A stretch of DNA of 47,480 nt, taken from assembly GCA_964554475.1 (NCBI GenBank), contig CAZKOT010000005.1:1-47480 (forward strand). The letters run 5' to 3'. A program made the translations under genes and the position numbers. Origin of the DNA: an uncultured Christensenella sp. (lineage in GTDB: Bacteria; Bacillota; Clostridia; Christensenellales; UBA1242). The notes beneath the pieces are model-generated. The model was not told the origin of the DNA. It did no database searches and saw only the letters and a list, made by a program, of their open reading frames with translations. This document shows positions 4,946 through 45,000 of the stretch, one piece after another; position 1 is the first letter of the stretch, and each line of letters begins with the position of its first letter.

Positions 4946-4956
4946 AAAATTTGGAA

Positions 4957-5511: not shown

Positions 5512-5525
5512 AAAATATATTTTGT

Positions 5526-6835: not shown

Positions 6836-7118
6836 AAAAAATAACAAAATACAAAAAAATTTAGTGGTAGATTTGAATAATAAATAATATAAGAGTTAAG
6901 AGGTTTTTTATTCTTTAAATAATTCCCCTTTTGAGAGGGGTGCTCCGCCCGAGCGACAATTTGCGAATGCAAATTGCAGGAATTACGAAGTAATTCCGTC
7001 GTAGAGCGAGGGAGGAGCAGGGTGTGTAAAATTAAAAGATAAGTTTTTAATAATTCACATTAATAAATTTGCTATTTGGAATTTGTCATTATTTGTATTT
7101 TGTAATTTGATTTATAAC
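6836..7118 (-). repeat. composite repeat unit, copy A: AT-rich inverted arms around a ~108-nt GC-rich hairpin core (6921..7028, minus orientation)
   Basis: Perfect 12-nt inverted repeat acaaaatacaaa (6845-6856) / tttgtattttgt (7092-7103). The reverse complement of the core aligns along its whole length with 32191..32298. Confidence 0.7.
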
Positions 7119-26469: not shown

Positions 26470-26721
26470 ATATAAAAATTTACCATAAATTTAATTTTTT
26501 TGCAAACGAAATAAAATTGATGATTTAAAAAAAATGTGATAAAATTCCAATCGTTGGTATGTATACCTATTCTTTGTTGACCAAATCAATAGAATATTAT
26601 TTGAACCTTTTATTTTAAATTTGAAATTTTTTTTAAAAATTTTATAATTTTTTCTCATTTGAATTTATTTGTTTAATTTACTTACAATATGTTATATTTA
26701 AATTGATAAATAAGTTATAGG

Positions 26722-29139
26722 ATGCTAATGAAAAAAAGAAATTTTAAACTAATATTTATTTCGATTTTTACCTTGTTTTTAGGCATTACATCTTTGCCTT
26801 TTCTTTCTTTTAAAAAAAATCAAGTAGAAGCAAGAATTATTCCACCCGAAGCAATTGAAATTAACACAATTGAAAAACTTCAAAACATAGGAAATCTTTC
26901 CTATGTTGACCCAGATTATCCAGAAAATCAATATTCTTTAGATGCAAATTATGTTTTAACTTCAGACTTAGATTTTCGCACTGTTGATGAAATAGAAGGT
27001 GAAATTTTTGAAGAGTGGACACCGATTGGAATTAAATATGAAGGCGGGAGTGTTGTTTACGCTCCATTCACGGGAAAATTTTATGGTAATGGTTACAAAA
27101 TTAGTAATATGAGACTTGCGAACAAAATCTTTTCTTATTATGAATGTGGATTGTTTGGTTCGCTTTCGGGTGCTGAAATTTATGATTTGGCACTTGTGGA
27201 TTATGCGGTTTTTCTTACAAATATTTTAGCAGACATCATTAACAATAAAAATACTCTTTACATTGGTGGAATTGCCGGAAGAGTTTTAGATAGTGGTACA
27301 GAATTAAGCATTATTCAAAATTGTTTTGTTAGTTACAAAAAACCAACTACTTCCCCAGCAACAGTTTATAATAGTGTTTCGGGTAATCTTTCTTTAAATT
27401 TCGGTGGTATTGTGGGAGACTTTCAAAACGGAAGTATTATTTCTGATTCCTATAGTGATGTTTCAATGATTTTAAATATGCAAGGTGGGCAAGGAACCGG
27501 AATTACATTTGGTGGAATTTGTGGCTCGTTAATTTCATCAAGTATTTTCACCTCTCATTCAAAAGCTACAATTATTTCGTCTAGTTCGGGAGGAATCTCT
27601 GCAAGTGCAAAAACAAATGGTGGTGGCATTGCCGGTTATGTTAGTGGTGCTAACAGCAAAATTATAACCACTTATTTTAGTGGAAAACTTGAAGCTACAT
27701 CTGAAAACAGTTTAATTTCAATAGGAGGGATAATAGGTACAATAACACAATCCATGGGAATTACACCCGTAAATGGTAATCTCAATTATGCTCATTTTTA
27801 TGCAACAACAAATGATGATGTTCTTCTCACACAAGCAATTGGTGAAGCGTATTATTATTCAATTATTGATTTAGTTCTAAATAGTTTAACTCAAGATAAT
27901 TATGCGCTTTTTGATAGGAATACGGAGGATTATTTTTCTTTTTGGTCAGAAGATTATGACAAAATTTGGAATTTTGATAGTATTTGGTCATTCCATGCAG
28001 ATAGTTTACCCACGCTTCAAGTTTTTAAAGTTTATACAGTTAATTTAAATGAAAATACAACATTAATTGGTGAAAATTCAATTAAAATTTCTAGTCTACG
28101 TTTTGCTTTAGAAGAAACTATTGAACCTCCAATTTTATCAAAAAATTTTAGATATAACTCTCTTGTTGAAATTGTAATTACAATATTATCAGATAATCCT
28201 TTAACTGAAGATATTATTGAACCTGATTATAATAATTTTTATGAATTAGATTCTGTTAACATTGATTCACATTCAGTAATAGACAATCCTCTTTACACAA
28301 TAATAAATAACGAAACCGAGGAGGGTGAGAATAAAGGTGTTTGGACTTTTTCATATTACATTAATGACCAAACTTTGGGTAATGTTTCAATCAGTTTGCG
28401 AAAAATTCCTTTTGACATTACAGTTAAAACAGACAATCCTGAAATGGGAAAAGTTCAAAAGCAATATTCTTCAGTTGTTAATGAGTTTACCGAATCAGTA
28501 AAGGATTCAGTGGGATATCATTTTATCGCATCTCCAATTAATAATAATATTGCATTTTCTCATTGGGTTTTTGAATTTCCTCCTGAAGAAGAAGGGGGAG
28601 AATTTCAAATTGTTCCACTTGAGAGTGAGTTAAAAAATCTTGCTCAATTCGCTTTTACTTTTGGATTAAGTGGAAATGAGGAAATAACACAAGGCATATT
28701 AAATGGTGGTAAGTTAGTTGCAGTTTTTACAAGTAATATTTGTAAAATCGAATTTACTATGAGATTAACCGGTGGTGGTTCTACAAATGAGGCGGGAACA
28801 ATTAGTTACACAATCGGGGGTGAAAATGTTCCATTAGGAGAACAAATTGCTTTTGTTAAAGGAAAATCTATTACTCTTGTTGTATCACCGGAAGAAGGTT
28901 TTATTTTTGAGGGTTGGTTTGATGAGGAAAATAGATTTTTGTCAAGTCAAACTACTTATATTTTTACTCCGGAAAGTGATACTATGTCTGTTGTTGCAAG
29001 ATTTTCAGGCGGAGCAACTGAATCAAATTTACTATGGTTGTGGATTGTTTTAAGTGTTTTGGGTGCAGGCGGAATCGGAGTTGCAATTTTCTTTATTATT
29101 CGTTCAAAAAAGGATTCGGCATATAAAAATTTTTATTAA
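26722..29139 (+). CDS. large surface protein: signal peptide, GLUG-motif region, Listeria-Bacteroides (InlB B-repeat)-like module, C-terminal TM anchor
   Basis: 805 aa. Repeated GGI(A/V/C/I)G motifs (CGLFGS, IGGIAGR, FGGIVGD, FGGICGS, GGGIAGY, IGGIIGT). EGFIFEGWFDEE near the C-terminus. LWLWIVLSVLGAGGIGVAIFFIIRSKK anchor, no LPXTG. Confidence 0.7.
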   Translation: MLMKKRNFKLIFISIFTLFLGITSLPFLSFKKNQVEARIIPPEAIEINTIEKLQNIGNLSYVDPDYPENQYSLDANYVLTSDLDFRTVDEIEGEIFEEWTPIGIKYEGGSVVYAPFTGKFYGNGYKISNMRLANKIFSYYECGLFGSLSGAEIYDLALVDYAVFLTNILADIINNKNTLYIGGIAGRVLDSGTELSIIQNCFVSYKKPTTSPATVYNSVSGNLSLNFGGIVGDFQNGSIISDSYSDVSMILNMQGGQGTGITFGGICGSLISSSIFTSHSKATIISSSSGGISASAKTNGGGIAGYVSGANSKIITTYFSGKLEATSENSLISIGGIIGTITQSMGITPVNGNLNYAHFYATTNDDVLLTQAIGEAYYYSIIDLVLNSLTQDNYALFDRNTEDYFSFWSEDYDKIWNFDSIWSFHADSLPTLQVFKVYTVNLNENTTLIGENSIKISSLRFALEETIEPPILSKNFRYNSLVEIVITILSDNPLTEDIIEPDYNNFYELDSVNIDSHSVIDNPLYTIINNETEEGENKGVWTFSYYINDQTLGNVSISLRKIPFDITVKTDNPEMGKVQKQYSSVVNEFTESVKDSVGYHFIASPINNNIAFSHWVFEFPPEEEGGEFQIVPLESELKNLAQFAFTFGLSGNEEITQGILNGGKLVAVFTSNICKIEFTMRLTGGGSTNEAGTISYTIGGENVPLGEQIAFVKGKSITLVVSPEEGFIFEGWFDEENRFLSSQTTYIFTPESDTMSVVARFSGGATESNLLWLWIVLSVLGAGGIGVAIFFIIRSKKDSAYKNFY

Positions 29140-29210
29140 TTAATTTGGCATATCAATATTGCATATTAAAAAAAAGTGATTTAAAATGACATTGCTTTAA
29201 AATTAAATAA

Positions 29211-29250
29211 TTGCTGATAGAATTTAAGTTCTATTAGCAATTTTTATATT
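29211..29250 (+). terminator. Rho-independent terminator after the surface protein gene
   Basis: ttgctgatagaa (29211-29222) / ttctattagcaa (29229-29240) plus T-run. Confidence 0.7.
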
Positions 29251-29265: not shown

Positions 29266-29571
29266 ATGGAAGGAGAAATCACTGATAAAAAAAGAAAAAG
29301 TTTAGAAAAAGCTCTTTTAAAAAAAGCATTAGGTTACAGTTTTGATGAAATTATTGAAGAGTACACATTAAACAAAAACGGAGAATTAAAACTTGCAAAA
29401 AGAAAAGTAACTAAAACATTTGTTCCTCCCGATATTCCTGCTGCAAAAGTTTTGCTTGAAAGTGGTGTGACAGAAAATCAATTTTCGAATATGACAAAAG
29501 AAGAACTTTTGGCAGAAAAACAAAGACTTTTAAAAGAATTAGCAGAAAGTCAAAAAAAAAATAAAAAATAA
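29266..29571 (+). CDS. small basic protein, possibly a phage terminase small-subunit-like DNA-binding protein
   Basis: 101 aa. ALGYSFDE...KRKVTKTFVPPDIPAAKVLLE resembles the conserved stretch of Firmicute phage TerS proteins. Sits at the head of the capsid module. Weak, from memory only. Confidence 0.35.
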   Translation: MEGEITDKKRKSLEKALLKKALGYSFDEIIEEYTLNKNGELKLAKRKVTKTFVPPDIPAAKVLLESGVTENQFSNMTKEELLAEKQRLLKELAESQKKNKK

Positions 29572-29580
29572 AAGTTTTTA

Positions 29581-29735
29581 GTAAACACCCCGTCAAGTCT
29601 TCGCTCTGTGACCGATTTACTTCGTAAATTCTGCAATTTGCTCAAATGCTCGGGCGTTGCCACCAGTAATTCCTGCAATTTGCTTGACACAAATTGACGC
29701 ACGGGCGGGGAATTATGTAGCGCAAACGCAAAAAA
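29581..29735 (+). repeat. GC-rich hairpin element, copy C (internally part-duplicated)
   Basis: Collinear with 32191..32298: caccccg..., gatttacttcgtaaatt hairpin, ctgcaatttgc present twice, gc(a)cgggcgggg. The overlapping minus-strand track ORF 29550..29798 is judged spurious. Confidence 0.65.
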
Positions 29736-29772
29736 ATCGTAATTAAAAAAAAGAAATAAAAAGGAGAATGAA

Positions 29773-29979
29773 ATGGAAATTGAAAAAGCACTAATCAAAG
29801 TTAAGTGTGATTTTTATGGTTGTAAAAATATGGCTGATTTTTCATTTAAAACAAGAAAAGTTTTTCAAAAAGAATTACATTTTTGTCGAAGTTGTTTAAA
29901 CGACCTTTACAGTGCAATAGGAAAAAATATTGTTCCAAAAGCAGCTGAAACACCATTTAAGAAAAAATCAAAAAATTAA
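29773..29979 (+). CDS. small zinc-ribbon protein (CxxxxC...CxxC), unknown function
   Basis: 68 aa. AAAGGAGA RBS. Cys pairs at CDFYGC and CRSC. Confidence 0.5.
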   Translation: MEIEKALIKVKCDFYGCKNMADFSFKTRKVFQKELHFCRSCLNDLYSAIGKNIVPKAAETPFKKKSKN

Positions 29980-30172
29980 TTTGTAAATAATAATTAACGG
30001 TAGATGAAGGAAAAAAGTAATTTAATAAAATAAAAACATTTGCTTTGCGAGCAAGCAATGATGAAATAAGTACAAGTAACATAACTAAAGAAATTTTTTC
30101 TTTATTTTTTCTTTATTTGTACTTTGAACTAATGCCTAACATAAAGCAAATTTTATTTCTAAGGAGATTTTA

Positions 30173-32077
30173 ATGAAAGAAAAGAATATGCAAAAATCTA
30201 ATCAACACATATTTAATCAAATTGACGGTGGTAATTTTGAGCAAAAAATTGCAAAAGAAGTTACAGAAGATTTTAAAAAACGTCAAATGCAAAAAAAAAG
30301 CTTTGAAACACAATGGCAATTAAACATGAATTTTTTGATGGGTAATCAATACTGCTCTGTGGGTTATAACGGAGAAGTAGAAGAATTTGAAAAGCAATAT
30401 TTTTGGCAAGAGCGTGAAGTTTACAATCACATTGCTCCATTAATTGAAATTAGGCTTGCAAAACTTCAAAAAGTTAGGCCGAGTATGGCAGTTGTCCCTG
30501 CAACAGGTGATGAGAAGGATATCAAAACAGCAAAAATTTCAAAAAAAATTATTAATAGTATTTACAACAACAAAGACATCAGTGAAATGATTAATCAAGC
30601 GACTCGTTGGAGTGAAATTTGTGGAACTAGTTTTTACAAGGTAACATGGAATTCTCAAGGTGGAGATAAAATTAAAAATGTTAGCAGTGGAGAGGTTGAT
30701 ATTTCTGTTATTTCTCCATTTGAAATTTTTCCTGAAAACTCAAATTGTGAACGACTTGAAGATAATCGAAGCATAATCCATGCAAGAGGTTATCATGTTG
30801 ACTTAATAAAAAATATTTGGGGAGTTGATGTGGAAGGTGAGGAAATTGATGTTTTTTCACTTGACCAAATAAACAAAACTATAGGGGGACTAGAATACAA
30901 TGGTTTTACAACAAAATTAATTAAAACAACTAGAGAAAATTATGCAATTGTTATTGAAAAATACGAACTTCCGACAGAAGAATTTCCTAACGGTAGACTT
31001 TTAATTGTTTGTGGAGGAAAACTTTTACATGTAAATGAATTACCCTATATTAACAAGACAAATGGCGAACGCGGATATCCTTTTATTAGACAAACTTGTA
31101 TTCAAAATATTGGCTGTTTTTGGGGAAGTAGTGTAATTGAAAGAATTATTCCTATTCAACGTTCTTACAATACAATTAAAAACAGAAAACATGAATTTCT
31201 TAACAGACTTTCAATGGGAGTTTTAACTGTTGAAGATGGTTCGGTTGACATTGGAAATTTGGAAGAAGAAGGACTTAGTCCAGGAAAAATTTTAGTTTAT
31301 CGCCAGGGTTCTTCTCCGCCACGATATATGTCAAATACTTCAATTCCAATTGATTTTGCTGCCGAAGAGGAAAAACTTTTAAATGAAATTATGCTAGTCA
31401 GTGGAACTTCAGATTTGTTTAGAGACCGTTCAGCCTATACTTCAAATTTAAGTGGTGTAGCGCTTCAATTATTAATTGAACAAGATGATTCTAGATTGTC
31501 AACTTCAGCGGAGCGAATAAGGGAATGCATTAAATCGTTAGCACAACATATTTTAAGACTTTACAAACAATTTGCATTAATTCCACGTCTCACAAAAATT
31601 GTGGGAGATAATGGTGAAATTGAAGTATTTTACTTTTCAAAAGGTGATATTACAAGTGATGATATTATTTTTGAAACCCAAAATGATTTAGGTGAAACTC
31701 TTGCACAAAGACGAAGCATGGTTTTTGAACTATTAAATGCGGGATTACTTTATGATGAAAACGGTAAACTTTCAAATAGGATGAGAGTTAAAGCACTTGA
31801 CCTTTTAGGTTTTGGAATTTGGGAAAATGCTCAAGACATAAACGAACTTCATTTAAAAAAGGCATCGGGCGAAAATCTTGAACTTTTGGAAGAAAAAAAA
31901 ATTGAAGTTTTGGAAATTGACGATCATGATATTCACATTGGAGAACATATTACTTTTATGTTAGGAAGTGAATATAAAAAACGGGAAGAAACAAATTTGA
32001 AGGAAAAAATTTTGGAGCATATTAGAATGCATAAGAAATTGAAAAAGTTACAGGGGGAAATTGAAATCAAAACTTAA
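30173..32077 (+). CDS. phage portal protein
   Basis: 634 aa. WQLNMNFLMGNQY N-terminal portal motif. Its size and its position before the scaffold and capsid genes fit. AAGGAGA RBS. Confidence 0.75.
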   Translation: MKEKNMQKSNQHIFNQIDGGNFEQKIAKEVTEDFKKRQMQKKSFETQWQLNMNFLMGNQYCSVGYNGEVEEFEKQYFWQEREVYNHIAPLIEIRLAKLQKVRPSMAVVPATGDEKDIKTAKISKKIINSIYNNKDISEMINQATRWSEICGTSFYKVTWNSQGGDKIKNVSSGEVDISVISPFEIFPENSNCERLEDNRSIIHARGYHVDLIKNIWGVDVEGEEIDVFSLDQINKTIGGLEYNGFTTKLIKTTRENYAIVIEKYELPTEEFPNGRLLIVCGGKLLHVNELPYINKTNGERGYPFIRQTCIQNIGCFWGSSVIERIIPIQRSYNTIKNRKHEFLNRLSMGVLTVEDGSVDIGNLEEEGLSPGKILVYRQGSSPPRYMSNTSIPIDFAAEEEKLLNEIMLVSGTSDLFRDRSAYTSNLSGVALQLLIEQDDSRLSTSAERIRECIKSLAQHILRLYKQFALIPRLTKIVGDNGEIEVFYFSKGDITSDDIIFETQNDLGETLAQRRSMVFELLNAGLLYDENGKLSNRMRVKALDLLGFGIWENAQDINELHLKKASGENLELLEEKKIEVLEIDDHDIHIGEHITFMLGSEYKKREETNLKEKILEHIRMHKKLKKLQGEIEIKT

Positions 32078-32099
32078 CATAAAAAAAAACACAAAAAAT

Positions 32100-32365
32100 T
32101 ACAAATAACAAAATATAAAATACAAATAAGGAATAATTAATATTTAATTAATTTATAAATCCTTATTTGTATTTTGTAATTAAAAATGAATACACACCCC
32201 GCCACTCCCTCGCTTATTGACGGATTTACTAGTGTAAATCCTGCAATTTGCCAAAGGAAATTGACGCTCGGGCGGGCAAAACCCCTCTCAAGAGGGAATT
32301 ATTAAAGGACTTATAGTTTAAAAAACCTTATTTGTATTTTGTATTTTGTTTTGTAATTTGTATAG
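32100..32365 (+). repeat. composite repeat unit, copy B: AT-rich arms plus a 108-nt GC-rich hairpin core (32191..32298)
   Basis: aaaatacaaataagga (32117-32132) pairs with tccttatttgtatttt (32160-32175). ccttatttgtattttgt recurs at 32326-32342. The core contains three hairpins (ggattta/taaatcc, caattt/aaattg, ccctct/agaggg). Confidence 0.75.
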
Positions 32366-32379
32366 AAATTGGAGGATAA

Positions 32380-33039
32380 ATGGAAAAAAATATAACAAGT
32401 CCCAGGGAACAACCCATCAGTTTGCCTGCAACATCCACAGAGGTGGAAAATGTAAAAGAAAGCGTTGAAGAAAATGTGCAGCAGCAACAATGTGGCTCCC
32501 TTGGAAAATTTAAAGACGCCGAAAGTTTACTCAATGCCTATAACAATTTGCAGGCAGAGTTTACAAAAAAGTGTCAATCACTTAGTGAAATAAAATCAAA
32601 AATTGAGAACACGCAAGAAAAAAAAGAAAGCGTGCCAATTTATGAAAAAGAAAACTGGGTGGAAAAGGTAACTTCGTTTTTATGTGAAAACAAAGATGCC
32701 AAACCTTTTGCCAAAGAAATAGCACAAAACATTATTGCAGATGAAGAACTTGCTTCAAAAGAAAATGCTTTGGAACTTGCTTGGGCAAAAGTTGCATCGT
32801 CAAAATATGTTGCTCCCGAACGAGCGGTTGAAGACGATGCGTTTGTTAATAATTACATTTTAAAAAGTGAAAAAATTAAAAGTGCGGTTTTGGATATGAT
32901 GTTAAAAGAAATGGCAAAAAACAATCCGCCAAAAGTTATTGCTTCGGAGCAAAAAGGAAGTTCGGCACCGTTTTCTAAACAAAAACAAGCAACTTCACTT
33001 TCTGAGGCGAAAGAAATGGTTAAACAGATGTTTAATTAG
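32380..33039 (+). CDS. phage scaffolding protein
   Basis: 219 aa, acidic, helical. GKFKDAESLLNAYNNLQAEFTKK motif is typical of Firmicute phage scaffolds. Lies between the portal and capsid genes. Confidence 0.6.
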   Translation: MEKNITSPREQPISLPATSTEVENVKESVEENVQQQQCGSLGKFKDAESLLNAYNNLQAEFTKKCQSLSEIKSKIENTQEKKESVPIYEKENWVEKVTSFLCENKDAKPFAKEIAQNIIADEELASKENALELAWAKVASSKYVAPERAVEDDAFVNNYILKSEKIKSAVLDMMLKEMAKNNPPKVIASEQKGSSAPFSKQKQATSLSEAKEMVKQMFN

Positions 33040-33186
33040 AATGCAAAGTGAGTAAAAGTTCAAATTACATATACAAGATACAAAATACAAATAAGAAAAT
33101 TTATCCCATTTGAATTATGTAATTTATATTTTGTGATTTTGAAATTATTAATTAAAAAATTTATAAAAAATTTAAGGAGGAAGTAA

Positions 33187-34401
33187 ATGGTTACACTAAC
33201 AAGTGCCGACAACGCCTTAAAATCGGTTTATTTGGGCGTTGTTGCAAATCAATTAAATATTAATGCAAACCCTTTGCTTGCAAAAATAAAACAGTCAACT
33301 CAAGATGTTTGGGGCAAAGAAATAATAAAACTTGCACCTTACGGTATTAATGGGGGAATCGGGGCAGGAGATGAAACCGATCCACTCCCAACCGCTGCTG
33401 CAAATAATTATGTTCAATTCAAATCCACCTTAAAAAATCTTTACGGAAAAATAGAACTTTCAGATAAGGCAATCAGGGCATCAGCAAACAATGCTGGTGC
33501 TTTCGTAAATCTTTTAAATGATGAAATGGAAGGATTGATTAAAGCAAGTAGTTTCAATTTCGGAAGAATGCTTTACGGAGATGGAAGCGGACTTTTAGCA
33601 ACGGTTACAGCTTACACAGCGGCAACAAAAGCAATAACGGTTGACAGTGTTCGCAATTTGATTGAAGGTATGGTTGTTGATTTTTTTGATGGTTCAACAA
33701 AAGTAACAGATGCAAGTGGCTACAGAATTACCTATGTTGACAGAACAAACAAGCAATTATTTTTAAATCTTCCATCAAACTTTAGTGCCGAAACAATTGT
33801 TGCGACTCAAACAATTTTTATTCAAAACTCAAAAGGATATGAAATTACTGGTTTAGGAGCAATTTTTGACACTACAGCAACAACTCTTTATGGTCTTACA
33901 AAAACAGATTATCCTTGGTTAAAACCATATGTTAGTACTGAAGAAACGGAAATCTCTGACGGTTTAATCCAAGGGGCAATCGACTTTTTGGAAGAAGCAA
34001 GTGGAAGTCAAGTAAACTTTATTGCTTGTGCAAGTGGTGTTCGCAGAGTTTATCAAGAGTATTTAGGCGCATACAGAAGAAATATTGATGTTATGGAACT
34101 TGCCGGCGGCTATAAGGCAATAACCTATAACGGCATACCAGTTGTCGCCGACAGGTTTGTTCCCGAAGGAAGTATGTTTTTGTTAAATACAAATGATTTC
34201 ACCCTTCATCAACTTTGTGATTGGAAATGGCTTGAGGGTGAGGACGGCAGAGTAATAAAGCAAAATGTAGGATATCCGACCTATAGTGCAACGCTTGTTA
34301 AATATGCAGATTTAATTTGCGACAAACCTTGCGGACAAGCAGTAATAAAAAATATTTTGTCAACTGTTACAAATCCATTTCAGGTTATAGTTCAAAGTTA
34401 A
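33187..34401 (+). CDS. phage major capsid protein
   Basis: 404 aa. Strong AAGGAGGA RBS. Position after the scaffold gene. The size and glycine-rich motifs fit an HK97-fold coat protein with an insertion domain. Family not assignable by eye. Confidence 0.65.
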   Translation: MVTLTSADNALKSVYLGVVANQLNINANPLLAKIKQSTQDVWGKEIIKLAPYGINGGIGAGDETDPLPTAAANNYVQFKSTLKNLYGKIELSDKAIRASANNAGAFVNLLNDEMEGLIKASSFNFGRMLYGDGSGLLATVTAYTAATKAITVDSVRNLIEGMVVDFFDGSTKVTDASGYRITYVDRTNKQLFLNLPSNFSAETIVATQTIFIQNSKGYEITGLGAIFDTTATTLYGLTKTDYPWLKPYVSTEETEISDGLIQGAIDFLEEASGSQVNFIACASGVRRVYQEYLGAYRRNIDVMELAGGYKAITYNGIPVVADRFVPEGSMFLLNTNDFTLHQLCDWKWLEGEDGRVIKQNVGYPTYSATLVKYADLICDKPCGQAVIKNILSTVTNPFQVIVQS

Positions 34402-34450
34402 TACTTTTTCGCTTAACAGTTTAACAGTATAAAACAAAAATATTAAAACT

Positions 34451-34525
34451 TACTTCGTTTTTGACTAAATTCGCTACTTGTCCTTGCAAATTGCGAACGC
34501 AAAATTATGTTAGGGCAAGTTGAGA
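34451..34525 (+). repeat. degenerate copy D of the GC-rich hairpin element
   Basis: Retains ttacttcgt (hairpin-1 loop of copies A and C) and gcaaattgcgaacgcaaaatt (hairpin-2 equivalent), inside the outer pairing acttgtcc/gggcaagt. Confidence 0.4.
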
Positions 34526-34640
34526 AATGAGAATATTTTAAATCTTTTGTGAGTAGAGCTGAATTATTAGTGATTAAAAAAAATAATTATTTACTAATAT
34601 TCGGCTCTTTACTCATTTATTAAATTTTTAGGAAATTGAA

Positions 34641-34916
34641 ATGAAAATTAAAATTGATAGTGATGTTTTTGAAATAACGAAACGTTTAAAAGCAATTGAC
34701 AATTCGTATTTCGTTTTATTTAACACACTTAAAAATTGCTATGAACTTCACAGTGAAAATCAACCTCACACAAGTTTTTGCTTAACTTTAGCTTTTAATT
34801 GTCTAGATGAACGAACAATCAACTTAACATTAAAAACTAGAAGTGAAAATAGAAAAATATTGTTTGAAGAAATTGAAAAAAATAATCAAAAAATAATGAA
34901 AAATGAACATGTTTGA
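34641..34916 (+). CDS. hypothetical phage-module protein
   Basis: 91-aa ORF, weak RBS, no recognisable family. Confidence 0.4.
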   Translation: MKIKIDSDVFEITKRLKAIDNSYFVLFNTLKNCYELHSENQPHTSFCLTLAFNCLDERTINLTLKTRSENRKILFEEIEKNNQKIMKNEHV

Positions 34917-34956
34917 AAAATCAATTACTAAATGCTTAAATAAAGTTATTACATCA

Positions 34957-34991
34957 ATACAAAATGCCTTATACATTTTGTATGGTTTTTA
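34957..34991 (+). terminator. hairpin plus T-run inside the phage module
   Basis: atacaaaatg (34957-34966) / cattttgtat (34974-34983), followed by ggttttta. Confidence 0.6.
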
Positions 34992-35039
34992 TTCCTAAAA
35001 TAAATTTTGAAAGATTGACTTTCAATTAAAAGGAGCAAT

Positions 35040-35609
35040 ATGCAAGTCAAAGAAATTTTGGAACTGGCATGTGTTTTTTTGGGAATGGACGAAGTTTTGG
35101 AAGATGAATACTTCACCGGAAATCCTGAAGGTGGCGATGATTCAACCGAAAAAGAAATTTCAAAACTATTAAAATGCTTAAATTTAATTGTTAATGAAAT
35201 TTCATCCGATTATCTTCCTCTTTTAACCGAGGAAGATGTTGTTTTTAATGATGAAAAATTATATTACACTGAACTCGACAAAACAATTTTGGAAGTTTTT
35301 TCTTTAAAAGATTTCAATGGTCGTGCCATTTCATTTAAAACTTTTCCAGAATATATTTCTGCAAATGTTCAAAATGCTTTACTTACCTACAGTTTTCAAC
35401 CTCAGGAACTCGAACAAGATGATGTCATAATTTATTATGGTGGAAAAATTCCCCCAAGAGTTTATGCCTATGGGGTTGCTATGGAGTATCTTTTTATTAG
35501 TAGTCAAAGTGACGAAGCGCATATTTGGGAAAAACGATACAAAGATTGCCTGTGTGAGATTGTTAGAAAAAAAAGTGAAACAAAACTTCCTTCACGGAGG
35601 TGGATTTAA
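35040..35609 (+). CDS. putative head-to-tail adaptor protein
   Basis: 189 aa. AAAGGAG RBS. Its stop overlaps the next start (TAATG). The assignment rests on position and size only (comparable to P22 gp4 / T7 gp11). Confidence 0.4.
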   Translation: MQVKEILELACVFLGMDEVLEDEYFTGNPEGGDDSTEKEISKLLKCLNLIVNEISSDYLPLLTEEDVVFNDEKLYYTELDKTILEVFSLKDFNGRAISFKTFPEYISANVQNALLTYSFQPQELEQDDVIIYYGGKIPPRVYAYGVAMEYLFISSQSDEAHIWEKRYKDCLCEIVRKKSETKLPSRRWI

Positions 35610-37123
35610 TGTTTAAACGAAAAGATTTACTTTTAAAAAAAATTAAAAAGTTTAAACTCACTTATTCTTCATTTGCAAATGGAATGAACACTGAAATTGA
35701 TGAAAATCTACTGCCCATTAAATATGCAAAAAAATTTTTTAATTTTTCAGTTAAAAGTGGTGCGTTAAAATCAGGTATGGGGTTTTCAGCATTATCTTTA
35801 CCAAAATATTATACAAGCGATGAAGAAAGATTAATCCCCGTTGTTAATCCCGATGAGGCAATTCTTTCAATTTGGCATTTTCCCTACTATCATGAAGACT
35901 CAAAAATAATTAGAAATAGTATTCTTTTTTACACTTCAACCGAACAGCTATTTTTTTTCCGTACGGTTTGGCAGTTTTCATCTTACTATACTTTGTTTAA
36001 TCCAACTCAGTATTTTAGCGGAAAAATGAATGCAATATATTACAAACTTAACGGGGTTGACAGTATGCTTATTTTTGTTCCCGAAGAGCAAAAGATTATT
36101 ATATTTCCCAAAACCGAAATTCCTCAAGTCATTACAGACACGCCTAATTTGGTTGATATTTGTCTTCACTATGAACGTCTTTTTGCAATTTTGGATGGTG
36201 ACCGAAAAACACTAATGTTTAGTGCTAATCTTGATCCTACAAATTGGGATGTTGAACTTTCAGAAGGTGGATTTATTGAACTTGCTGATGAGCGTGGAAG
36301 CATTAATAAAATTGTTTCTTTTAATGACTTTGTTTATGTTTTTCGTGATTATGGAGTTACAAAAATTTCAGCATATGGCGAACAAGAACAGTTTAGTGTT
36401 ACTCAACTTTTTAAATCATCGTCTAAAATTTATGGTAATTCTGTTGCTTGTTGTGGTGATAGAATTTTATTTCTTGCACGGGACGGTCTTCATGTTTTTG
36501 ATGGCTATTCAACATCAAAAATAATTCTTAACATAGAAAGCATGTTTGAAAATATTAACAACGAGAATTGTTTTGGAGTTTATTTTAACAGTAAGTATTA
36601 TTTGGCATGTAAACTTAATTTTAATGATGATGATCAAATAGGTTGTGAAAATTATAGTGGTGGTTATGTAAATAATGCTCTTATTGAATTTGATATAAAA
36701 ACGGGTGATTTTAACATCTTACGAGGAGTTGACATTCTTAATATGATTGCAATTGAAGAATTAAATATTTCAAAACTTGTTGCTTGTTTTAATGGAGAAT
36801 TTAAAAATCGTTTTGGACAACTTGACAAGAGTGGAAAAATTTTTGGAAATGTTTTGAGTAAGCAATGGCTCTCACCCCTTTCTAATTTCGGTTATCCAAA
36901 TCAAAAAAAAATTGTGCAAGAGGTTTTAATTAAATCAAAGTCTAATTGCAAGATTATTATTAAATCAAATTTAGAAGAAAAAACTTACACGATAAAAGGT
37001 AGTGAGGTTACACAACGCGTTAAAACTAATGTTCGTGGAGAATTAATTCAAATTAAGTTTATTTGTGATGAAGAAGGAGATGTTGAAATTTCAGCACCTC
37101 AAATTATTTTTGGTGTTGTTTAA
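35609..37123 (+). CDS. putative neck/tail-hub protein (position and size comparable to P22 gp10)
   Basis: ATG 35609 lies 8 nt after GGAGG and is coupled to the previous stop. About 505 aa. Repetitive beta-rich pattern (…VYVFRDYGVTKIS…ILFLARDGLHVFDG…). Confidence 0.4.
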   Translation: MFKRKDLLLKKIKKFKLTYSSFANGMNTEIDENLLPIKYAKKFFNFSVKSGALKSGMGFSALSLPKYYTSDEERLIPVVNPDEAILSIWHFPYYHEDSKIIRNSILFYTSTEQLFFFRTVWQFSSYYTLFNPTQYFSGKMNAIYYKLNGVDSMLIFVPEEQKIIIFPKTEIPQVITDTPNLVDICLHYERLFAILDGDRKTLMFSANLDPTNWDVELSEGGFIELADERGSINKIVSFNDFVYVFRDYGVTKISAYGEQEQFSVTQLFKSSSKIYGNSVACCGDRILFLARDGLHVFDGYSTSKIILNIESMFENINNENCFGVYFNSKYYLACKLNFNDDDQIGCENYSGGYVNNALIEFDIKTGDFNILRGVDILNMIAIEELNISKLVACFNGEFKNRFGQLDKSGKIFGNVLSKQWLSPLSNFGYPNQKKIVQEVLIKSKSNCKIIIKSNLEEKTYTIKGSEVTQRVKTNVRGELIQIKFICDEEGDVEISAPQIIFGVV

Positions 37124-37173
37124 GTCATAAAGATTAAATGTTGCTTAAAAGCAAAAATATAAGGGAGGAAAAA

Positions 37174-38118
37174 ATGTATCAATTTAATTTTTCGGATGAA
37201 GATAGCGAAGAAATTGTAAAAAAGGCAACAAAACTTGATGAGTTGTTTAAATCATTTGCAGATATTGACAAAAAATTTGACCTTTCAAGTAAAATTTCAG
37301 AAGAGGACTATAACAAAAAACTTGACTTAAAACGTCAAGAGTTTGAAAAAGCAAATGACGAAGAAGTGAAAAAAGAAGCAGAAAATAGTTTGCATGATTA
37401 CAAAACAACTTCAAAAAATCAAATAGAAAATGAGTATTTAGAAAAAGGAGAAGCAATAGACAAAACATTAACATCTCTTTCTGGAAGCAAAGAGGGGGCA
37501 AAAAGCGAAATCGAAAAAGCATATAAAACGGCAAAAGATAATGCTTCAAATGATGCAATAAAACGAGGACTAGCTCGCAGTTCAATTATTGTCAATAAAC
37601 TTGCTCAATATGATGAATCATATTTAAACGAGTTTACAAAAATTGAAAAAAATTATGCTGACACGGTTTCAAAACTTGATGCAGAAAAAAATTTGTTAGA
37701 AGTTCAAAGACAAAGCGCACTTGATAATTTTGATATTTCTTATGCAGTTAAACTTTCCGAAAAAATTGAGGGAATTAACGAAAAATTAGATGCAAAAGAA
37801 AAAGAAGTGATTGAATATAACAATAAAATACAGCAATTGGAAAAAGAATTTGAATTAGAGCAACAAGAGTTAAAAAGTAAAGATGAAAAAGAAAGTAAAA
37901 AAAGCAATTTAGATTTATTAAAATATATTTCACAATACGGCTCAACCACTCTTGACCGTTTTAAAGAGCAAGAAAAATACAGCCTTGCTTACAATTATTT
38001 AATGTCATTACCAAAGGGTCAGGCAATTTTTGAACTTGAAGAAAATTCTAATTTTAAAAATAATTTAAAAACATTATTTACAAAGTTGCAGAGCGAAATT
38101 AAGAATAGAAAAAATTAG
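37174..38118 (+). CDS. coiled-coil phage structural protein (plug/needle or internal protein candidate)
   Basis: ATG 37174 follows AAGGGAGGA (track ORF starts 37138). Lys/Glu-rich heptad-like sequence throughout. Confidence 0.4.
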   Translation: MYQFNFSDEDSEEIVKKATKLDELFKSFADIDKKFDLSSKISEEDYNKKLDLKRQEFEKANDEEVKKEAENSLHDYKTTSKNQIENEYLEKGEAIDKTLTSLSGSKEGAKSEIEKAYKTAKDNASNDAIKRGLARSSIIVNKLAQYDESYLNEFTKIEKNYADTVSKLDAEKNLLEVQRQSALDNFDISYAVKLSEKIEGINEKLDAKEKEVIEYNNKIQQLEKEFELEQQELKSKDEKESKKSNLDLLKYISQYGSTTLDRFKEQEKYSLAYNYLMSLPKGQAIFELEENSNFKNNLKTLFTKLQSEIKNRKN

Positions 38119-38250
38119 TGCTTGATGGCAAGGTTAGTAAAATTGAGGATAAAAGATTTTGCTTCTTTTGCTATTTCTTAAATTTTATTATTCATTATCT
38201 AAATATTAATTATTTAAGAAAACAGATGATTTTAGACAGGAGGTTAGTGT

Positions 38251-38556
38251 ATGATTTTTGAAGATATTTTAACCATGGCAATTAGCAATGGTATTTTTGC
38301 CGTGTTATTTGTTTTTCTTCTATTCTATCTTTTAAGAGATAGTGCAAATCGAGAAAAAAAATATCAGGAGACTGTTGAAAAACTTGCAAAACATCTTGAT
38401 ATTGTAGAAGATATGAAAGATGATGTTTCAAATATTAAAGAAGATGTTTTGGAAATTAAAAATATTGTGATTTTTAAAGGAAAAAAAGAGAAAAGTCAAA
38501 ATACAGAGAACAAATATAAAAGCTTTAATTTTAATAAAGATACGGAGGAAAAATGA
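38251..38556 (+). CDS. BhlA/UviB-family holin-like protein
   Basis: 101 aa. N-terminal TM (GIFAVLFVFLLFYLL) followed by RDSANREKKYQETVEKL, as in the BhlA/UviB family. Confidence 0.5.
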   Translation: MIFEDILTMAISNGIFAVLFVFLLFYLLRDSANREKKYQETVEKLAKHLDIVEDMKDDVSNIKEDVLEIKNIVIFKGKKEKSQNTENKYKSFNFNKDTEEK

Positions 38557-38807
38557 AAATTAAAAGTTATTCGTTTTGGACTTCTCTTTCAGCGGCGACG
38601 GTAATTATTGTAAAAACAATTTGTGAAGCATTTGGGCTTGAATTTGAAGAAAAAATTGTCGGAGACATTATTATGGCAATTTGCGGACTTTTGGTTGTTT
38701 TCGGAGTTGTTACAATGCCGAGTAAAAAAGAGAGTACTGAAGTAAAAGAAAAAATTGAAAAGAAGGAAAGTGAAGAAAATATTATTGACGACAGAGAAAA
38801 TAAATAA
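38553..38807 (+). CDS. phage holin (two TM helices)
   Basis: 84 aa. FWTSLSAATVIIVKTICEAFGL...IIMAICGLLVVFGVVTMP with a charged tail. ATGA overlap with the previous gene. Confidence 0.6.
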   Translation: MKIKSYSFWTSLSAATVIIVKTICEAFGLEFEEKIVGDIIMAICGLLVVFGVVTMPSKKESTEVKEKIEKKESEENIIDDRENK

Positions 38808-38832
38808 AAACTGACAGCTATAAATTATAAAT

Positions 38833-38863
38833 AATACTGCTTGTTAAGAGCAGTATTTTTTTT
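38833..38863. terminator. bidirectional terminator between the holin gene and the convergent peptidase gene
   Basis: aatactgct (38833-38841) / agcagtatt (38849-38857) plus T-run. Confidence 0.75.
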
Positions 38864-38933
38864 AAATAATTTTTTCAAAATAAGAAAAAAGTCTTTTTAC
38901 TAAGTTGAATATTATCTCAATTTTTAATTTATA

Positions 38934-40094
38934 TTAATTAAGCTTTGAGTAATCGTTTGTTGTTATTAGTTTTAGTGCCAATTTGGGAATATTTTTGTTT
39001 TGTTTGAAAAGTATGGGTAATAATTCTTCAGTAAGTGGATGAGTTAAATCATCACTCCCAAGTTCAATCGTGAAAGCGGGAACGTGAAATGTTTGACTAA
39101 CCCAATCAGAATATCCGCCAACAGATTGCTTTGTTTTTTCAATTTTGTACCCCGTTATTATTGCAATTTTTTTTGCAATTTTTTTGTCTCTTTCAATTTC
39201 ATTTTTTGACAATTTTTCAAAACCATAAAATATTACTTCACCTTTAGTGTGATAAGAAATTGTCATCATTGGTTTGACTTGCAAAGTAAAATCAATTAAT
39301 GCTTTTACTTCGGGTTCGCTGTTTGGCTCTTTTCCCACATAATTTAACGGAGCAGGAAAGAATACATTTGATTTTCCATTTCCCCAAAGGGCATCAAAAT
39401 TGACGTTGAGGTCCACTGCATTTGCATTCGCTTTCCATAGACTGCGAATAAAAGACGAAATGCTACGTTCCTCACAACTTGCTTCGGGCTCCAGGTCTTC
39501 GCCCTCAAAAAACTCTTGCGTGTTTTTGTTGTTCGGAGTACTGGGATGCGAGGCCAGACAGTCATTAACGCTCGCCTTTTTAATGTTTCCGCTCGCAAGC
39601 GTGCTCAACCTACAAAAACGTAAAATGTTTTTGGCGGCTCGCGGAAATAAACTCCTGCCTGTCCTCATATCCCGAGCTTTGCCTATTGCATTGTCTTCGA
39701 GGTCCATATTATGAGGATTGTAAATATTTTTTTTGTTTAATCTATAATTTTTTATAATCTGTTTTAAAAACTCTTTTTTTTCATCAAAAATTTTATTTTC
39801 TATTCCATTCATTGCAAGAAGTGCACCGTCGGGATTGCAAAGGGGAATAAAATAAATTCCTCCATAGTGCGTTAGTTTTGAAAAATCTTGTTTCAAATAA
39901 AATTTTAAAAGTTCCAAAACCAAAAGGGAAGAGACCCATTCACGAGCATGAATTCCGCCCTCAATAATAATTTGATTTTTTGAGTTGTCGCCTACATGAA
40001 AAGCATAAATATTTTGTCCAAGCACGCTTTTTCCAATAATTTGCTTTGGGCAAGTAATTTGCATTATTTCTTTTTCTAATTCTTTAAAGTTCAC
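38934..40094 (-). CDS. M14-family zinc peptidase (gamma-D-glutamyl-diamino-acid endopeptidase type) carrying a GC-rich in-frame insertion
   Basis: GGIHAREW (HxxE), LCNPDG, LWKANANAVDLNVNF, NSEPE and SYHTKGEVI motifs. GTG start at 40094 (alternative ATG at 40064). About 85-97 extra codons lie between NPDG and WKAN. Confidence 0.8.
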   Translation of the reverse strand: MNFKELEKEIMQITCPKQIIGKSVLGQNIYAFHVGDNSKNQIIIEGGIHAREWVSSLLVLELLKFYLKQDFSKLTHYGGIYFIPLCNPDGALLAMNGIENKIFDEKKEFLKQIIKNYRLNKKNIYNPHNMDLEDNAIGKARDMRTGRSLFPRAAKNILRFCRLSTLASGNIKKASVNDCLASHPSTPNNKNTQEFFEGEDLEPEASCEERSISSFIRSLWKANANAVDLNVNFDALWGNGKSNVFFPAPLNYVGKEPNSEPEVKALIDFTLQVKPMMTISYHTKGEVIFYGFEKLSKNEIERDKKIAKKIAIITGYKIEKTKQSVGGYSDWVSQTFHVPAFTIELGSDDLTHPLTEELLPILFKQNKNIPKLALKLITTNDYSKLN

Positions 40095-42082: not shown

Positions 42083-45000
42083 ATGAAAAAATATAATGTC
42101 AAATTAAATATTGTTTTTCAAACACTAATGATTTTATTAAGTGTGTTTAGTGTTGTAATTGGTTCATTATTTGTTTCTTATTCGTCAAATAAAGTATTCG
42201 CAAATTTTAATCCTTTAATGGTACAATATAACCAAACTCAAGAACAGGAAAGCTCAAGTGACAAAAAAAATATTGAAATTACCACCTACAAACTAAATGA
42301 TAACACTGGATACAATATTAATAGCAGTGATCAAATTTCAAATGATAATCATTTATTAAAAGATGCAAATGAAATTGGAAAAACATTTTTAAATCTTTCA
42401 GTGATTGCAGAGAGTGATTTTCCTCAAGGTGAAACAAGTGACGGCAGAGTTGGGGCATTTATTGAAACAACAAATGAGCAAAATTTGTTATTGAAACAAA
42501 ATGGAATCAATGCTTATGGTGTTTCAGGTTCACGTGTTTATATTGGTCTTAATTACAATTTTGACAAAATTTTAGGCTTTGTAAATTATGAAAATGTTCC
42601 AAAAGGAACAAAATCAAATATTGAATTTTCATCTGATACAGCGACTTCAATTGGCGGAAAAACTGTTGGTGAAATTAAGTATGGCGGAATTTTAATTCAA
42701 AAAAAGACTTCAATTAATGACATTTATCAAATGCAAACAAAGCAAGGAGAAACTTTTGATAATATTCACACAACAGACTTAACAACTTGGTTTAGTCCAG
42801 AAATCTATGTTAATGGTTATGAAACTGCTAAACTTTTTCAGTTAAGCGGACAAGACATTAATAATGGAGTTTTCATTCAAATTCAATTTGCATATGAGTT
42901 GAAATATACATATAGTTGGCATGAGCAAGCAGATTTTTGGCATTGGTGGGGTGAAGACAAAAGCGAAACGGTTTATGTCAATATGTTGGAAGTTGCCGAG
43001 TTTTATGTTGTACAAAATTCAGGAGTTGTTTCCTTTCACAATGCATCAACAACTAGCACAGTTGAAAACGAAGGAACAAGTGAGGCAGTTAGGCAGGCAG
43101 GGACAATTTTGAGCGGACACACAAGTTTTAATGGATTTAGACTTAACACTTTGGGAGCGAGTTACCAAGTTGAATATAGTAAAAATTTTTCTTCATTTGC
43201 TTTGGCAGAAGACGGGCAATTTTTCAGTGAGCAAGGCAGATATGATTTTAAAATCACAACCAAACTTGGAAAAGTTCGAGAGCATGTTATTTTTATTGAT
43301 AAGCGAGAAATTAATGATGCGGTTTGGGCATATTTTGGAGAAAGTTTGCTAACAAGCAAGGGAGATAGTGAAGAGAGTCTTGACAGTTATCGTCTTTTCA
43401 CAACTGGAGAGTTACCGACCTATTTAGCCGAGCAGACATATTATCACTTGAATAGTTTAAACAATTTATTTGCAAAAGCATATGGCAGAATTTACAAAGA
43501 ATCTGATGTTGAAGGTGACGAACGAGTTTTTATTGCAGAAATAACACAGGAAAATCCTGATGGCACAATTTTGGAGGAAGGAATTTACACAGCCGATTTT
43601 TATACTGATTATGGGGCATATGGCGAAGCTTTTGGAATTTCGAATTGTGGCAGTTCAAGCGGTGACAGTTATCATTTTATCTTCAAATTTGAAGTTGTGG
43701 ATAAGGAAACCCCGAGTAATCCATTTGTTAATGAGGAGTACTTAAACTCTTTCATTTCTGTTTCAGATTTAATGGCAAAGTATTATGCAATAACTCTTCA
43801 AAGTTCTGGAACTGGAAAAGTGGCATTTGCCTTTGCTGATTATTTTGGAGCATATAATTTTGCATACAATTACGAACGAAGTTTTATTGAAATTTTGGGA
43901 GATAATCAATTTCAATACAAATCTCTTGATGACCCTCAAATCTTAAATATTTACAACTCTCAATTTTCAGTTTTAGAGGCAGTTGATAAATATGCAGAGG
44001 AATTAATTGAAATTAAATATTTTGATGCAAGTGAGCCACAAACTTATCAAACAGCAAATATTGCCGATGAAGCGGTTTTAAATTTTGAATTTGAAGAAGA
44101 TATTGTTATATTTCTAAATGACATTGAACAAGAACTTGCAACTGATAGTAATAATTTTTTAAATGGACGAAAATATCGAAGTGTTAATTCTGACGGAACT
44201 ATTTCTGATGGAATTATTTATCCAACATTTTTGGCAGTTGGTGAATTTGAAACAAAAACCATTACTTTAATTAACAAGACTGACCCAACAATAGAGTTTA
44301 ATATTGTGTATGGTGTTTCCATTGAACAACAACTTTTAGAAGTAAATGCCCCAAGTGGAAAATATATTGTTAAAGAAGAAAACAAATACGGAACAATAAG
44401 TGAATATGAGGTTACATATATTTGTAATGGAGAAATGAGTGGAGTTGTTACTTTTGAAGTTTTCCATAACGGAGAAACGGAAACAAAAATAATAACCAAC
44501 CTTAACAATGAGCAAACAATTTTTGCAAATGGTTTTGTTTTAAAGAGTATAACAAATGAATTAGACAAGCATTCAATTATTAAAATTTCAAAGGACGGAG
44601 CGCAACAAAATATTTTTGAATTTAACGAAGTTCAAGATTTGATTTTTTATGAGGCAGGAGAATATCTTTTTACTTTTGTTGACAGACTAGGTAATTTGTT
44701 TAATTATAATGTTATAATTACTGACCAAGTTGGCTATCAAAACATTTCTTTTGTTAGTGAAGATGAAACAGTTCAAAACACATTTGCTTTTATTGGACAA
44801 ACAATAACCTTTCCAATTCCAGATGTAGCAGAGGGTTTTGAATTTATGGGCTGGCAATGTGGCGAAATTTTTGCGCCTGTAGGAGAAAATTTTACATTAA
44901 TTTCAAATGAAGACTTAGATTTTGTTGAAGTTTTACATTTTATTGAAACCACAATTACTTTATATGACGGAGAAATTTATACAACACTCACAGCAAAGCC

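Follow-up and report, generated by a model that had tools for sequence, protein, structure and literature searches.

Gene transfer agents (GTAs) are known from very few lineages, and the first podovirus-like one, found in a gut Firmicute, was reported in 2026. That element, the GTA-like FpGTA of Faecalibacterium prausnitzii, is experimentally supported (Nat Commun 2026, PMC12946183). It is encoded in two places: a 10.5-kb operon carries genes for a small terminase subunit (TerS) without a DNA-binding domain, the large subunit (TerL), portal, scaffold, capsid, and podovirus-like proteins, and a second operon 125 kb away supplies the fibre, receptor-binding protein (RBP), holin, and endolysin (PMC12946183). 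The 40-nm particles contain ~8.5 kb of random host DNA (PMC12946183). The same work detected GTA-like packaging in Christensenellaceae, with peaks at 4.1 and 7.1 kb for HGM11616 and at 6.3 kb for QANA01, and assigned no gene cluster to it (PMC12946183). The locus described here lies on a 47,480-nt contig of an uncultured Christensenella sp. (CAZKOT010000005.1, assembly GCA_964554475.1; the whole contig, ~30% GC, is referred to as the window) and offers a concrete gene set to hold against this unexplained packaging. It consists of eleven intact open reading frames (ORFs), all on the plus strand at 29266-38807, which probably constitute the structural-plus-lysis operon of a host-resident, vertically inherited, GTA-like particle system that arose from a short-tailed phage.

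The genes of the module and the terminator that closes it are as follows.

29266..29571, plus strand: TerS-like protein, 101 aa, without an N-terminal DNA-binding domain (phrog_309, 3e-5; phrog_23444, "terminase small subunit")
29773..29979, plus strand: four-cysteine (zinc-ribbon-like) protein, 68 aa, a conserved member of the module
30173..32077, plus strand: portal, 634 aa (PF16510 P22_portal, 5.2e-20; phrog_156, 1.9e-39)
32380..33039, plus strand: scaffold-position protein, 219 aa, helical and acidic, named by position only
33187..34401, plus strand: major capsid protein of podovirus type, 404 aa (NCBIfam NF033394 capsid_maj_Podo, 3.6e-84; phrog_14242, 5.8e-62)
34641..34916, plus strand: conserved protein, 91 aa, syntenic in most loci
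35040..35609, plus strand: head-to-tail adaptor, 189 aa (AlphaFold model and Foldseek)
35609..37123, plus strand: tail nozzle or hub, 504 aa, a beta-propeller (AlphaFold and Foldseek), translationally coupled to the adaptor gene via TAATG
37174..38118, plus strand: DUF7934 coiled-coil protein, 314 aa (PF25588, 1.9e-43)
38251..38556, plus strand: BhlA-family holin, 101 aa (PF10960, 8.7e-19)
38553..38807, plus strand: Phage_holin_1 family holin, 84 aa (PF04531, 2.8e-5), overlapping the BhlA gene by 4 nt
38833..38857, no strand assigned: bidirectional intrinsic terminator at the operon end (terminator scan)

The coordinates, strand, sizes, and order of these ORFs agree with a preliminary description of the DNA, as do the intergenic spacers of exactly 302, 147, 239, and 123 bp, the TAATG at 35607-35611, and the good ribosome-binding sites. 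What that description had left as a gap between TerS and portal is occupied by the 68-aa four-cysteine ORF, which sits in the same slot in most relatives (32-64% identity) and has no family match among Pfam, PHROG, and NCBIfam profiles. Shine-Dalgarno motifs precede nearly every start; 35609 and 37174 are preferred over the longest-ORF starts 35600 and 37138 because they have good ribosome-binding sites and the alignments of homologues begin there. The capsid protein scores 282 bits against NF033394, a model with a cutoff of 80. The 219-aa protein, which gave neither a family match nor a Prp domain in profile searches, is named for the portal-capsid slot, kept in all loci. The TerS call is modest but consistent: the match spans only positions 196-243 of the 319 in phrog_309, a C-terminal stretch, and the same family is matched by 38 of 40 homologues (best 7.6e-9). 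The DUF7934 protein, whose gene is lost or unrecognisable in one clade without a nearby TerL, may be a tail plug or needle or an internal protein. PDB sequence searches with the capsid, portal, TerS-like, and DUF7934 proteins returned nothing useful, and Rfam gave no match in the window.

What would the proteins downstream of the capsid build? To predict the structures of the 504-aa and 189-aa proteins, alignments from 43 relatives per protein were fed to AlphaFold. The 504-aa model is a beta-propeller (pLDDT 89.2, pTM 0.90) that Foldseek matches to the Pa223 tail (3.5e-22, TM 0.72), VP1 (6.6e-17), and P22 gp10 (1.5e-13, TM 0.60-0.63), with further matches to GP4, Sf6 gp8, SU10, and T7 gp12; a profile match to the SU10 tail protein 7z47_G (0.0035) points the same way. 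The 189-aa model (pLDDT 89.7) resembles adaptor chains of SU10, N4, Pa223, Shigella phages B2 and Moo19, and T7 gp11 (E 1.6e-5 to 5e-3, TM up to 0.70), and P22 gp4 is absent from its Foldseek matches. The P22-type mapping suggested earlier therefore stands in part: the product of 35609 is a gp10-type nozzle, and that of 35040 occupies the functional slot of gp4, but its fold is of the SU10/N4/T7-gp11 class. The portal is likewise of the P22 family, while TerL, where relatives have it, lies upstream of the TerS-like gene and not between TerS and portal. Since the nozzle and adaptor folds match podovirus tail proteins, the locus is predicted to encode the head, neck, and core of a short tail.

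The likeness to FpGTA is extensive. Both are Clostridia-resident, ~10-kb podovirus-like operons; both comprise a TerS without a DNA-binding domain, TerL, portal and capsid with a further protein encoded between these two, short-tail genes, and an abundant coiled-coil protein (annotated as "TolA" in FpGTA). Each is divided between at least two loci, has no integrase or replication genes, and occurs nearly throughout its host clade. The compact FpGTA type of operon, running from TerL through the TerS-like gene and portal to the nozzle, is found in basal relatives of the module; in the window, TerL is unlinked. The differences are also clear. The FpGTA capsid belongs to the N4-gp56 family (RCH50849.1, Supplementary Data 2), whereas that of the window belongs to NF033394 and has no N4-gp56 match at E <=0.1. 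A Prp-annotated protein stands between portal and capsid in FpGTA, in contrast to the 219-aa protein here. In FpGTA, TerL belongs to operon I, and operon II supplies holin, endolysin, and fibres; in the present family the head operon includes the holins, and it is TerL that comes unlinked. Finally, the hosts belong to different orders. On these family annotations, which alone set the two apart, the module looks like an independent or very distant domestication. A literature search found no other description of it beyond the FpGTA-type comparison.

More distant parallels exist. The RcGTA-type agents of Alphaproteobacteria are also phage derived, vertically inherited, under purifying selection, encoded at multiple loci, host regulated, and equipped with a TerS without a DNA-binding domain (PMC12946183). 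Unlike the present system, RcGTA is siphovirus-like, with a long tail, unrelated genes, and the regulators CtrA and GafA; comparison of the adaptor with the RcGTA neck gave marginal Foldseek matches only (E >=0.03). The closest free phages, Arthrobacter phage Jasmine and Microbacterium phage Shocker, have portals and capsids of the same families and a gene order that likewise runs from TerL through portal and scaffold-position gene to capsid. Identity to them is 24-29% for portal and capsid (capsid 26-29%), and they differ in having complete 45-kb genomes with tailspikes, endolysins, and replication genes. A separate group of IMG/VR sequences (L094-L098) has capsids 39% and portals 36-37% identical to those of the window, together with a 167-aa TerS, a 758-aa TerL, and a 381-aa scaffold, and more genes follow downstream than in the module; these are probably genuine phages of the ancestral lineage.

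How widespread is the module? A capsid-seeded scan of one genome per GTDB species yielded 319 genomes with a relative of the capsid, of which the best 80 were fetched. These 80 are all uncultured Clostridia, many of them labelled Christensenellales or Christensenella, with capsids 64-81% identical to that of the window. The same order from the TerS-like gene to the holins, over ~8-9.5 kb, recurs in 80/80 of the fetched loci (where long enough), and each of the 80 species has a single module copy. The synteny extends to 11 IMG/VR fragments, and at 90% identity the capsids in public data fall into >6,000 clusters. Housekeeping genes flank the module; they are conserved within clades and different between them: for example, grpE-dnaK-dnaJ and an ABC transporter on the upstream side and comEC-holA on the downstream side, or RNase J-dnaX-ybaB-recR. 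Among the 128 representatives of flank ORF clusters, matches include HSP70, SecY, ribosomal protein S2, a tRNA synthetase, SpoIVA, and FtsW. The nearest relative, L099, has a capsid 82% identical to that of the window and reads regulator, membrane protein, TerL, surface protein, eleven tightly spaced genes, membrane protein, RNase J. The block that it shares with the window runs from the surface protein to the second holin; both outer flanks differ.

As the preliminary description had stated, the window holds no packaging ATPase, integrase, or replication gene: profile searches found no terminase, integrase, or replication domain in any sizeable ORF, and tblastn with 24 TerL proteins of relatives gave no match. 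Where, then, is the packaging motor? Clustering of flank ORFs revealed it in relatives as a 478-aa protein encoded upstream on the same strand in 24 loci, with Terminase_6N (1e-16) and Terminase_6C domains and invariant Walker A (GGNRSGKTE) and Walker B (VWFDEEPP) motifs. Still further upstream are a divergent 265-300-aa membrane protein and a 165-204-aa sigma-70 region 4/ECF-like regulator, so that the order in relatives is regulator, membrane protein, TerL, TerS-like gene. Genes for this regulator, the membrane protein, and the family c8 likewise gave no tblastn match in the window. Among the capsid-seeded loci, TerL is upstream in 43, abutting the TerS-like gene in 13 (<400 bp), at 2-4 kb in 24, and at >4 kb in 6, and 23 have no TerL within at least 6 kb. 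In the 24 loci with a gap of 2-4 kb, the intervening gene encodes a surface protein homologous to that at 26722-29139 of the window. On the capsid tree, abutting TerL genes are basal and the insertion marks derived clades, that of the window included, where the gap is 2.5-5.8 kb; the window is the only TerL-less member of this clade (with L099, L101-104, L004, and L005). Three other clades (11, 19, and 12 rows) lack a nearby TerL altogether (within 6-16 kb).

A second, TerL-seeded scan of metagenome contigs gave 80 loci from at least 470 confirmed relatives. A head module lies downstream of TerL in 51 of them, and the TerL to TerS-like gap is <400 bp in 54 of the 59 with both genes, or their ends, visible. 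The scan also brought up orphans, in which the regulator, membrane protein, and an intact 478-498-aa TerL are present without a head module: five loci with at least 8 kb downstream and two with 4-8 kb. Four orphans form one clade of the TerL tree, and its sister group consists of one orphan and four loci on contigs too short to judge. No head module was seen in the nine-member clade that the two groups make up. One orphan, carried by 15 contigs from many samples, lies in the core chromosome: after uvrD ... dnaB come the regulator, its membrane protein, TerL, and three small genes, and beyond these another membrane protein and RNase J, followed by hrcA-grpE-dnaK-dnaJ. The latter membrane protein and RNase J are the same pair that follows the holins in L099, and this orphan marks the ancestral site, minus the head operon. 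Orphan TerL genes have a dN of 0.10-0.19 with saturated dS, and the one measurable pair gives 0.105; the motor gene is thus kept where head genes are not adjacent, just as head genes are kept without an adjacent motor. Matching by sample name and coverage turned up no sample that an orphan TerL shares with a TerL-less module. In L112, TerL is 99% identical to those of L109 and L111 and is followed by the same surface protein, and the head module is missing; this is either a presence/absence or relocation polymorphism within a species or a misassembly.

For the genome at hand, TerL was sought in sequencing runs. The contig comes from a bioreactor metagenome at ~6-7x depth, and one run (X1) holds 97% of the words of the window. 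When X1 and two further runs (X2 and X3) were searched with the TerL DNA of the relative L005 at 80% likeness, X1 gave a single TerL-like contig of 1,689 nt, with two colinear matching segments and a depth of 6.37, against 5.6-7.7 for pieces of the window. The TerL-like piece has a depth of 3.71 in X2 (window 2.9-5.2) and of 3.23 in X3 (window 3.1-4.2). The unmatched ends of the contig encode the TerL motifs NIFGTLSKIG and LFSGISKVKS. In a control search with the portal-to-capsid region of L005, all capsid-like pieces in X1 proved to be the window's own sequence. With a single type each of capsid and TerL, and equal depth for the two, an unlinked TerL elsewhere in the genome of this organism is likely. 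In two runs, independent Logan contigs cross the borders of the block (X3, 26535-26959; X1, 35780-39230), which rules out a chimeric assembly as the cause of the TerL-less context. The preliminary description had also raised the prospect of a terminase or integrase just outside the module, as in a prophage split by rearrangement. A TerL does lie there in relatives; integrase and replication genes do not, and with flanks of housekeeping genes the picture is that of a host-resident element with an unlinked TerL.

Is the module maintained by selection? Reading frames are intact in ~90-98% of loci. The comparison of dN/dS across related genomes that the preliminary description had called for was run as pooled NG86 on close species pairs, in place of an all-against-all NG86 that saturated dS made misleading, and values range from 0.04 to 0.27. 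They are 0.04 for TerL (0.042), 0.04-0.05 for the portal (0.051 in TerL-less versus 0.042 in TerL-linked loci), 0.04-0.05 for the capsid (0.049 versus 0.041), and 0.04-0.07 for the nozzle (0.070 versus 0.040). The TerS-like gene (0.05-0.09), the 91-aa protein (0.07-0.09), the zinc-ribbon protein (0.08-0.15), the adaptor (0.08-0.16), DUF7934 (0.06-0.12), the BhlA holin (0.06-0.07), the Phage_holin_1 holin (0.06-0.25), and the scaffold (0.18-0.27) follow. Purifying selection is as strong without a nearby TerL as with one, a result incompatible with neutral decay. For these species pairs, the pooled dS of the capsid and scaffold genes (window 32380-34401) is 0.4-0.8, about half of the 1.3-2.0 of portal, nozzle, and TerL, which suggests codon-usage selection and high expression.

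Taken together, the gene content suggests how the system might work. The operon would build a small capsid from portal, scaffold, and capsid proteins and a stubby tail from adaptor, nozzle, and possibly DUF7934, and the two holins would release the particles. TerL and the regulator would be separate genes of the same system, ancestrally immediately upstream; in the clade of the window, host genes would have come to lie between TerL and the head operon, and in this genome the two parts would be fully separated, with TerL most probably on another contig and acting in trans. Headful packaging of host DNA without sequence specificity would agree with a TerS-like protein that has no DNA-binding domain. 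To carry the genes of the element, a packaged fragment would have to reach at least 12.5 kb (9.5 kb of head operon and ~3 kb of regulator and TerL), against the ~4-7 kb reported for Christensenellaceae (PMC12946183). As in a GTA, the resident head and packaging genes come without integrase, excision, or replication functions and are inherited vertically under purifying selection. At the level of the family, the genes are spread over more than one locus and tied to host regulation, as the TerL-less operons, orphan loci, and LexA boxes indicate; in this genome, the multi-locus arrangement is seen in the depth-matched TerL-like contig only.

As for that regulation, the LexA (Cheo) box GAAC-N4-GTTC occurs 58 times in 2.5 Mb of loci, 21 of them at 130-190 nt upstream of the gene for the sigma-like regulator. 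The loci concerned are L006, L009, L011, L012, L014, L018, L044-L058, L108-L112, L132, L153, and L158-L161; there is no LexA box near the module of the window. A different motif marks the head operon itself, and in the window two features stand before the first gene.

29145..29187, plus strand: promoter-like element TTGGCA-N8-TTGCAT-N17-TAAAAT upstream of the operon, a putative function read from the letters
29209..29242, plus strand: hairpin with a 15-bp stem and a T-run, between the promoter-like element and the first gene (terminator scan)

TTG[GT]CA is found within 150 nt upstream of the TerS-like gene in 23 of 34 TerL-less loci (68%) and in 13 of 22 separated loci (59%), against 4-15% upstream of internal genes. 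It is enriched wherever the TerS-like gene opens a transcription unit, lies at -48 to -68 in TerL-less loci, and has its copy in the window at 29145-29150. In the regions upstream of the TerS-like genes of L004-L084, hexamers resembling -35 and -10 elements come after it, and several clades have a hairpin over the -10 or beyond it. The most enriched 6-mer upstream of the TerS-like gene is TGTCAT (17.6-fold). Either the sigma-like regulator or an activator may act at TTG[GT]CA. The TTGGCA motif was also considered as a sigma-54 site and rejected because its GG-to-GC spacing is 11-12 nt and not 10. The hairpin could terminate the surface-protein gene, attenuate the leader, or do both. Going by these motifs, one can imagine a cascade in which DNA damage releases LexA control of the sigma-like regulator, which would then turn on TerL and the head operons and, ultimately, lysis by the holins; such a cascade would explain how unlinked parts are co-ordinated. 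Transcripts may also have been sampled: an oligo-dT RNA-seq library (X11) from a food-fermentation metagenome contains short contigs at 28326-28474, 30135-30659, 31122-31295, and 33672-34109, which match the surface-protein, portal, and capsid genes. Six of the nine contigs are at least 99% alike, and the same species lives there.

One bolder proposition is that the family amounts to an order-wide, podovirus-type GTA, domesticated independently of FpGTA from a capsid_maj_Podo phage lineage, switched on by the SOS response via the sigma-like regulator, its motor and head repeatedly separated yet working in trans, and the source of the 4-7 kb DNA packaged by Christensenellaceae in human stool. 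This proposition is slightly less likely than not. Whether or not it holds, the locus belongs to a second and much wider family, with a different capsid lineage and hundreds of host species, in a heritable, health-associated gut order whose members also live in digesters and fermentations. With the motor gene unlinked at least three or four times independently, it provides a natural experiment in how a domesticated virus becomes a dispersed, organelle-like system. For annotation, the lesson is that such blocks should not be named defective prophages or satellites.

Several points weigh against a GTA-like system, in general or in this genome. The family is known from genes alone, and particles, random packaging of host DNA, transfer, and control of the operon by the regulator are all deduced from them. 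The TerS assignment is weak, and the TerS-like gene comes after TerL instead of before it. That TerL is present in this genome is gathered solely from matching metagenome depth, and the RNA signal is a handful of short contigs that could be DNA carry-over. In one TerL-less species, a walk upstream from dnaK met no TerL within 16.5 kb, and none of the contigs read carries a TerL-less module together with a distant TerL. (The same species, L208 and L210, has at 1024-6404 a ~6-kb element upstream of hrcA with a serine recombinase, HTH proteins, and a REP_ORF2-G2P replication protein; in another sample, L209, that site is occupied at 2167-3168 by an insertion sequence of the rve family.) Lastly, neither an RBP nor a tail fibre nor an endolysin was found in or beside the module in any locus. 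A minus-strand M14 peptidase gene downstream, at 38934-40094, was considered as an endolysin and rejected, having no linkage to the module in any relative. Its ORF contains an in-frame, GC-rich insert of ~90 codons, especially at 39400-39710, between conserved peptidase motifs.

The missing fibres and RBP speak for an alternative in which the particle is domesticated and transfers no genes. It would serve for killing, for lysis-linked release of DNA or public goods, or for defence, and the packaged DNA would go undelivered. The model for this is PBSX of Bacillus subtilis, a Firmicute phage-like element that is SOS induced, packages host DNA, and lyses its host by a holin; here, the corresponding traits, namely the holins inside the operon and the SOS wiring in relatives, are known from genes and motifs. 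The late regulator of PBSX, Xpf, is small and sigma-like. Unlike the present system, PBSX makes a myovirus-like, contractile killer particle from one contiguous cluster of ~28 kb, and TerL of the relatives scores 33.7 bits against the PBSX terminase model, below its cutoff of 105. The authors of the FpGTA study keep the same option open for their own element (PMC12946183). Even so, a conserved set of portal, TerL, and TerS-like genes under strong selection indicates that packaging itself is selected, and chromosomal fragments packaged in GTA-like fashion have been reported for Christensenellaceae (PMC12946183). A particle without transfer is thus unlikely, though it is the best of the alternatives to a GTA-like system.

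Might the copy in this genome be a recently orphaned, non-functional remnant that lost TerL and the regulator when the block moved? Its standing as the sole TerL-less member of its clade would fit, as would flanks unlike those of the nearest relative on both sides and the presence in its spacers of a GC-rich dispersed repeat.

29582..29735, plus strand: copy of the GC-rich repeat in the spacer between the TerS-like and zinc-ribbon genes, not part of the element in relatives (this spacer is 12 bp in the nearest relative)
32191..32279, plus strand: second copy, in the portal/scaffold spacer

A third copy lies at 6931-7020 on the minus strand and a possible further one at 34451-34525. The unit is ~100-150 nt long, Logan unitigs break at the copies, and the nearest relative, L099, is without it; its spacers measure 11-66 bp, and only the genome of the window has the long ones. 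Set against decay of the copy are the eleven intact ORFs with their ribosome-binding sites, the depth-matched TerL-like contig in three runs, and the short contigs in the RNA library that match the portal and capsid genes perfectly, all of which make a remnant improbable.

A satellite of the phage-inducible chromosomal island (PICI) type that forms its own capsids (cf-PICI) and borrows the TerL, tails, and lysins of a helper would explain why the window has its own TerS-like protein, portal, and capsid and no TerL, fibres, or endolysin. cf-PICIs do encode capsid and packaging proteins of their own and no tail fibres. They are mobile, depend on a helper phage, and have integrase, regulation, and replication modules. 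In contrast, no integrase, att site or repeat, or replication or primase gene was found in the window or the annotated neighbourhoods of the loci read. The position between core genes is fixed within clades, there is a single copy in each of the 80 species, TerL is ancestrally part of the element, and the module has its own adaptor and nozzle. A satellite is therefore very improbable. A prophage in neutral decay is more so: many phage functions are missing, but frames are intact and the order identical in at least 80 species, dN/dS is low for every gene with and without a nearby TerL, including clades that have lacked a linked TerL through many speciations, the frameshifted homologues that decay would leave were not seen, and the host-gene flanks of relatives contradict recent horizontal copies of an active phage. 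Of the three readings offered in the preliminary description, a decaying prophage, a satellite, and a domesticated capsid-forming locus, it is the last that is supported.

Around the module, the window is unremarkable for much of its length, its first 29 kb coding for ordinary metabolism: PPDK, MetK, a Zn ABC transporter, NrdD/NrdG, the acc and fab operons, a lipoate ligase, and PnuC. The gene immediately upstream of the operon is of more interest.

26722..29139, plus strand: surface protein, 805 aa, with a signal peptide and a C-terminal transmembrane (TM) segment, of GLUG/InlB B-repeat type (Pfam Flg_new_2)

This protein is 35% identical over its full length to the 773-aa protein encoded between TerL and TerS in L099. 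Homologues (cluster c0) occur in 24 loci; in the clade of the window, their genes follow TerL and precede the TerS-like gene. The protein probably represents host cargo that entered the element, as opposed to a virion component. A second TM-anchored InlB B-repeat surface protein, at 42083-47479, brackets the region on the other side; the contig ends at its Hint domain, an arrangement like that of polymorphic toxins.

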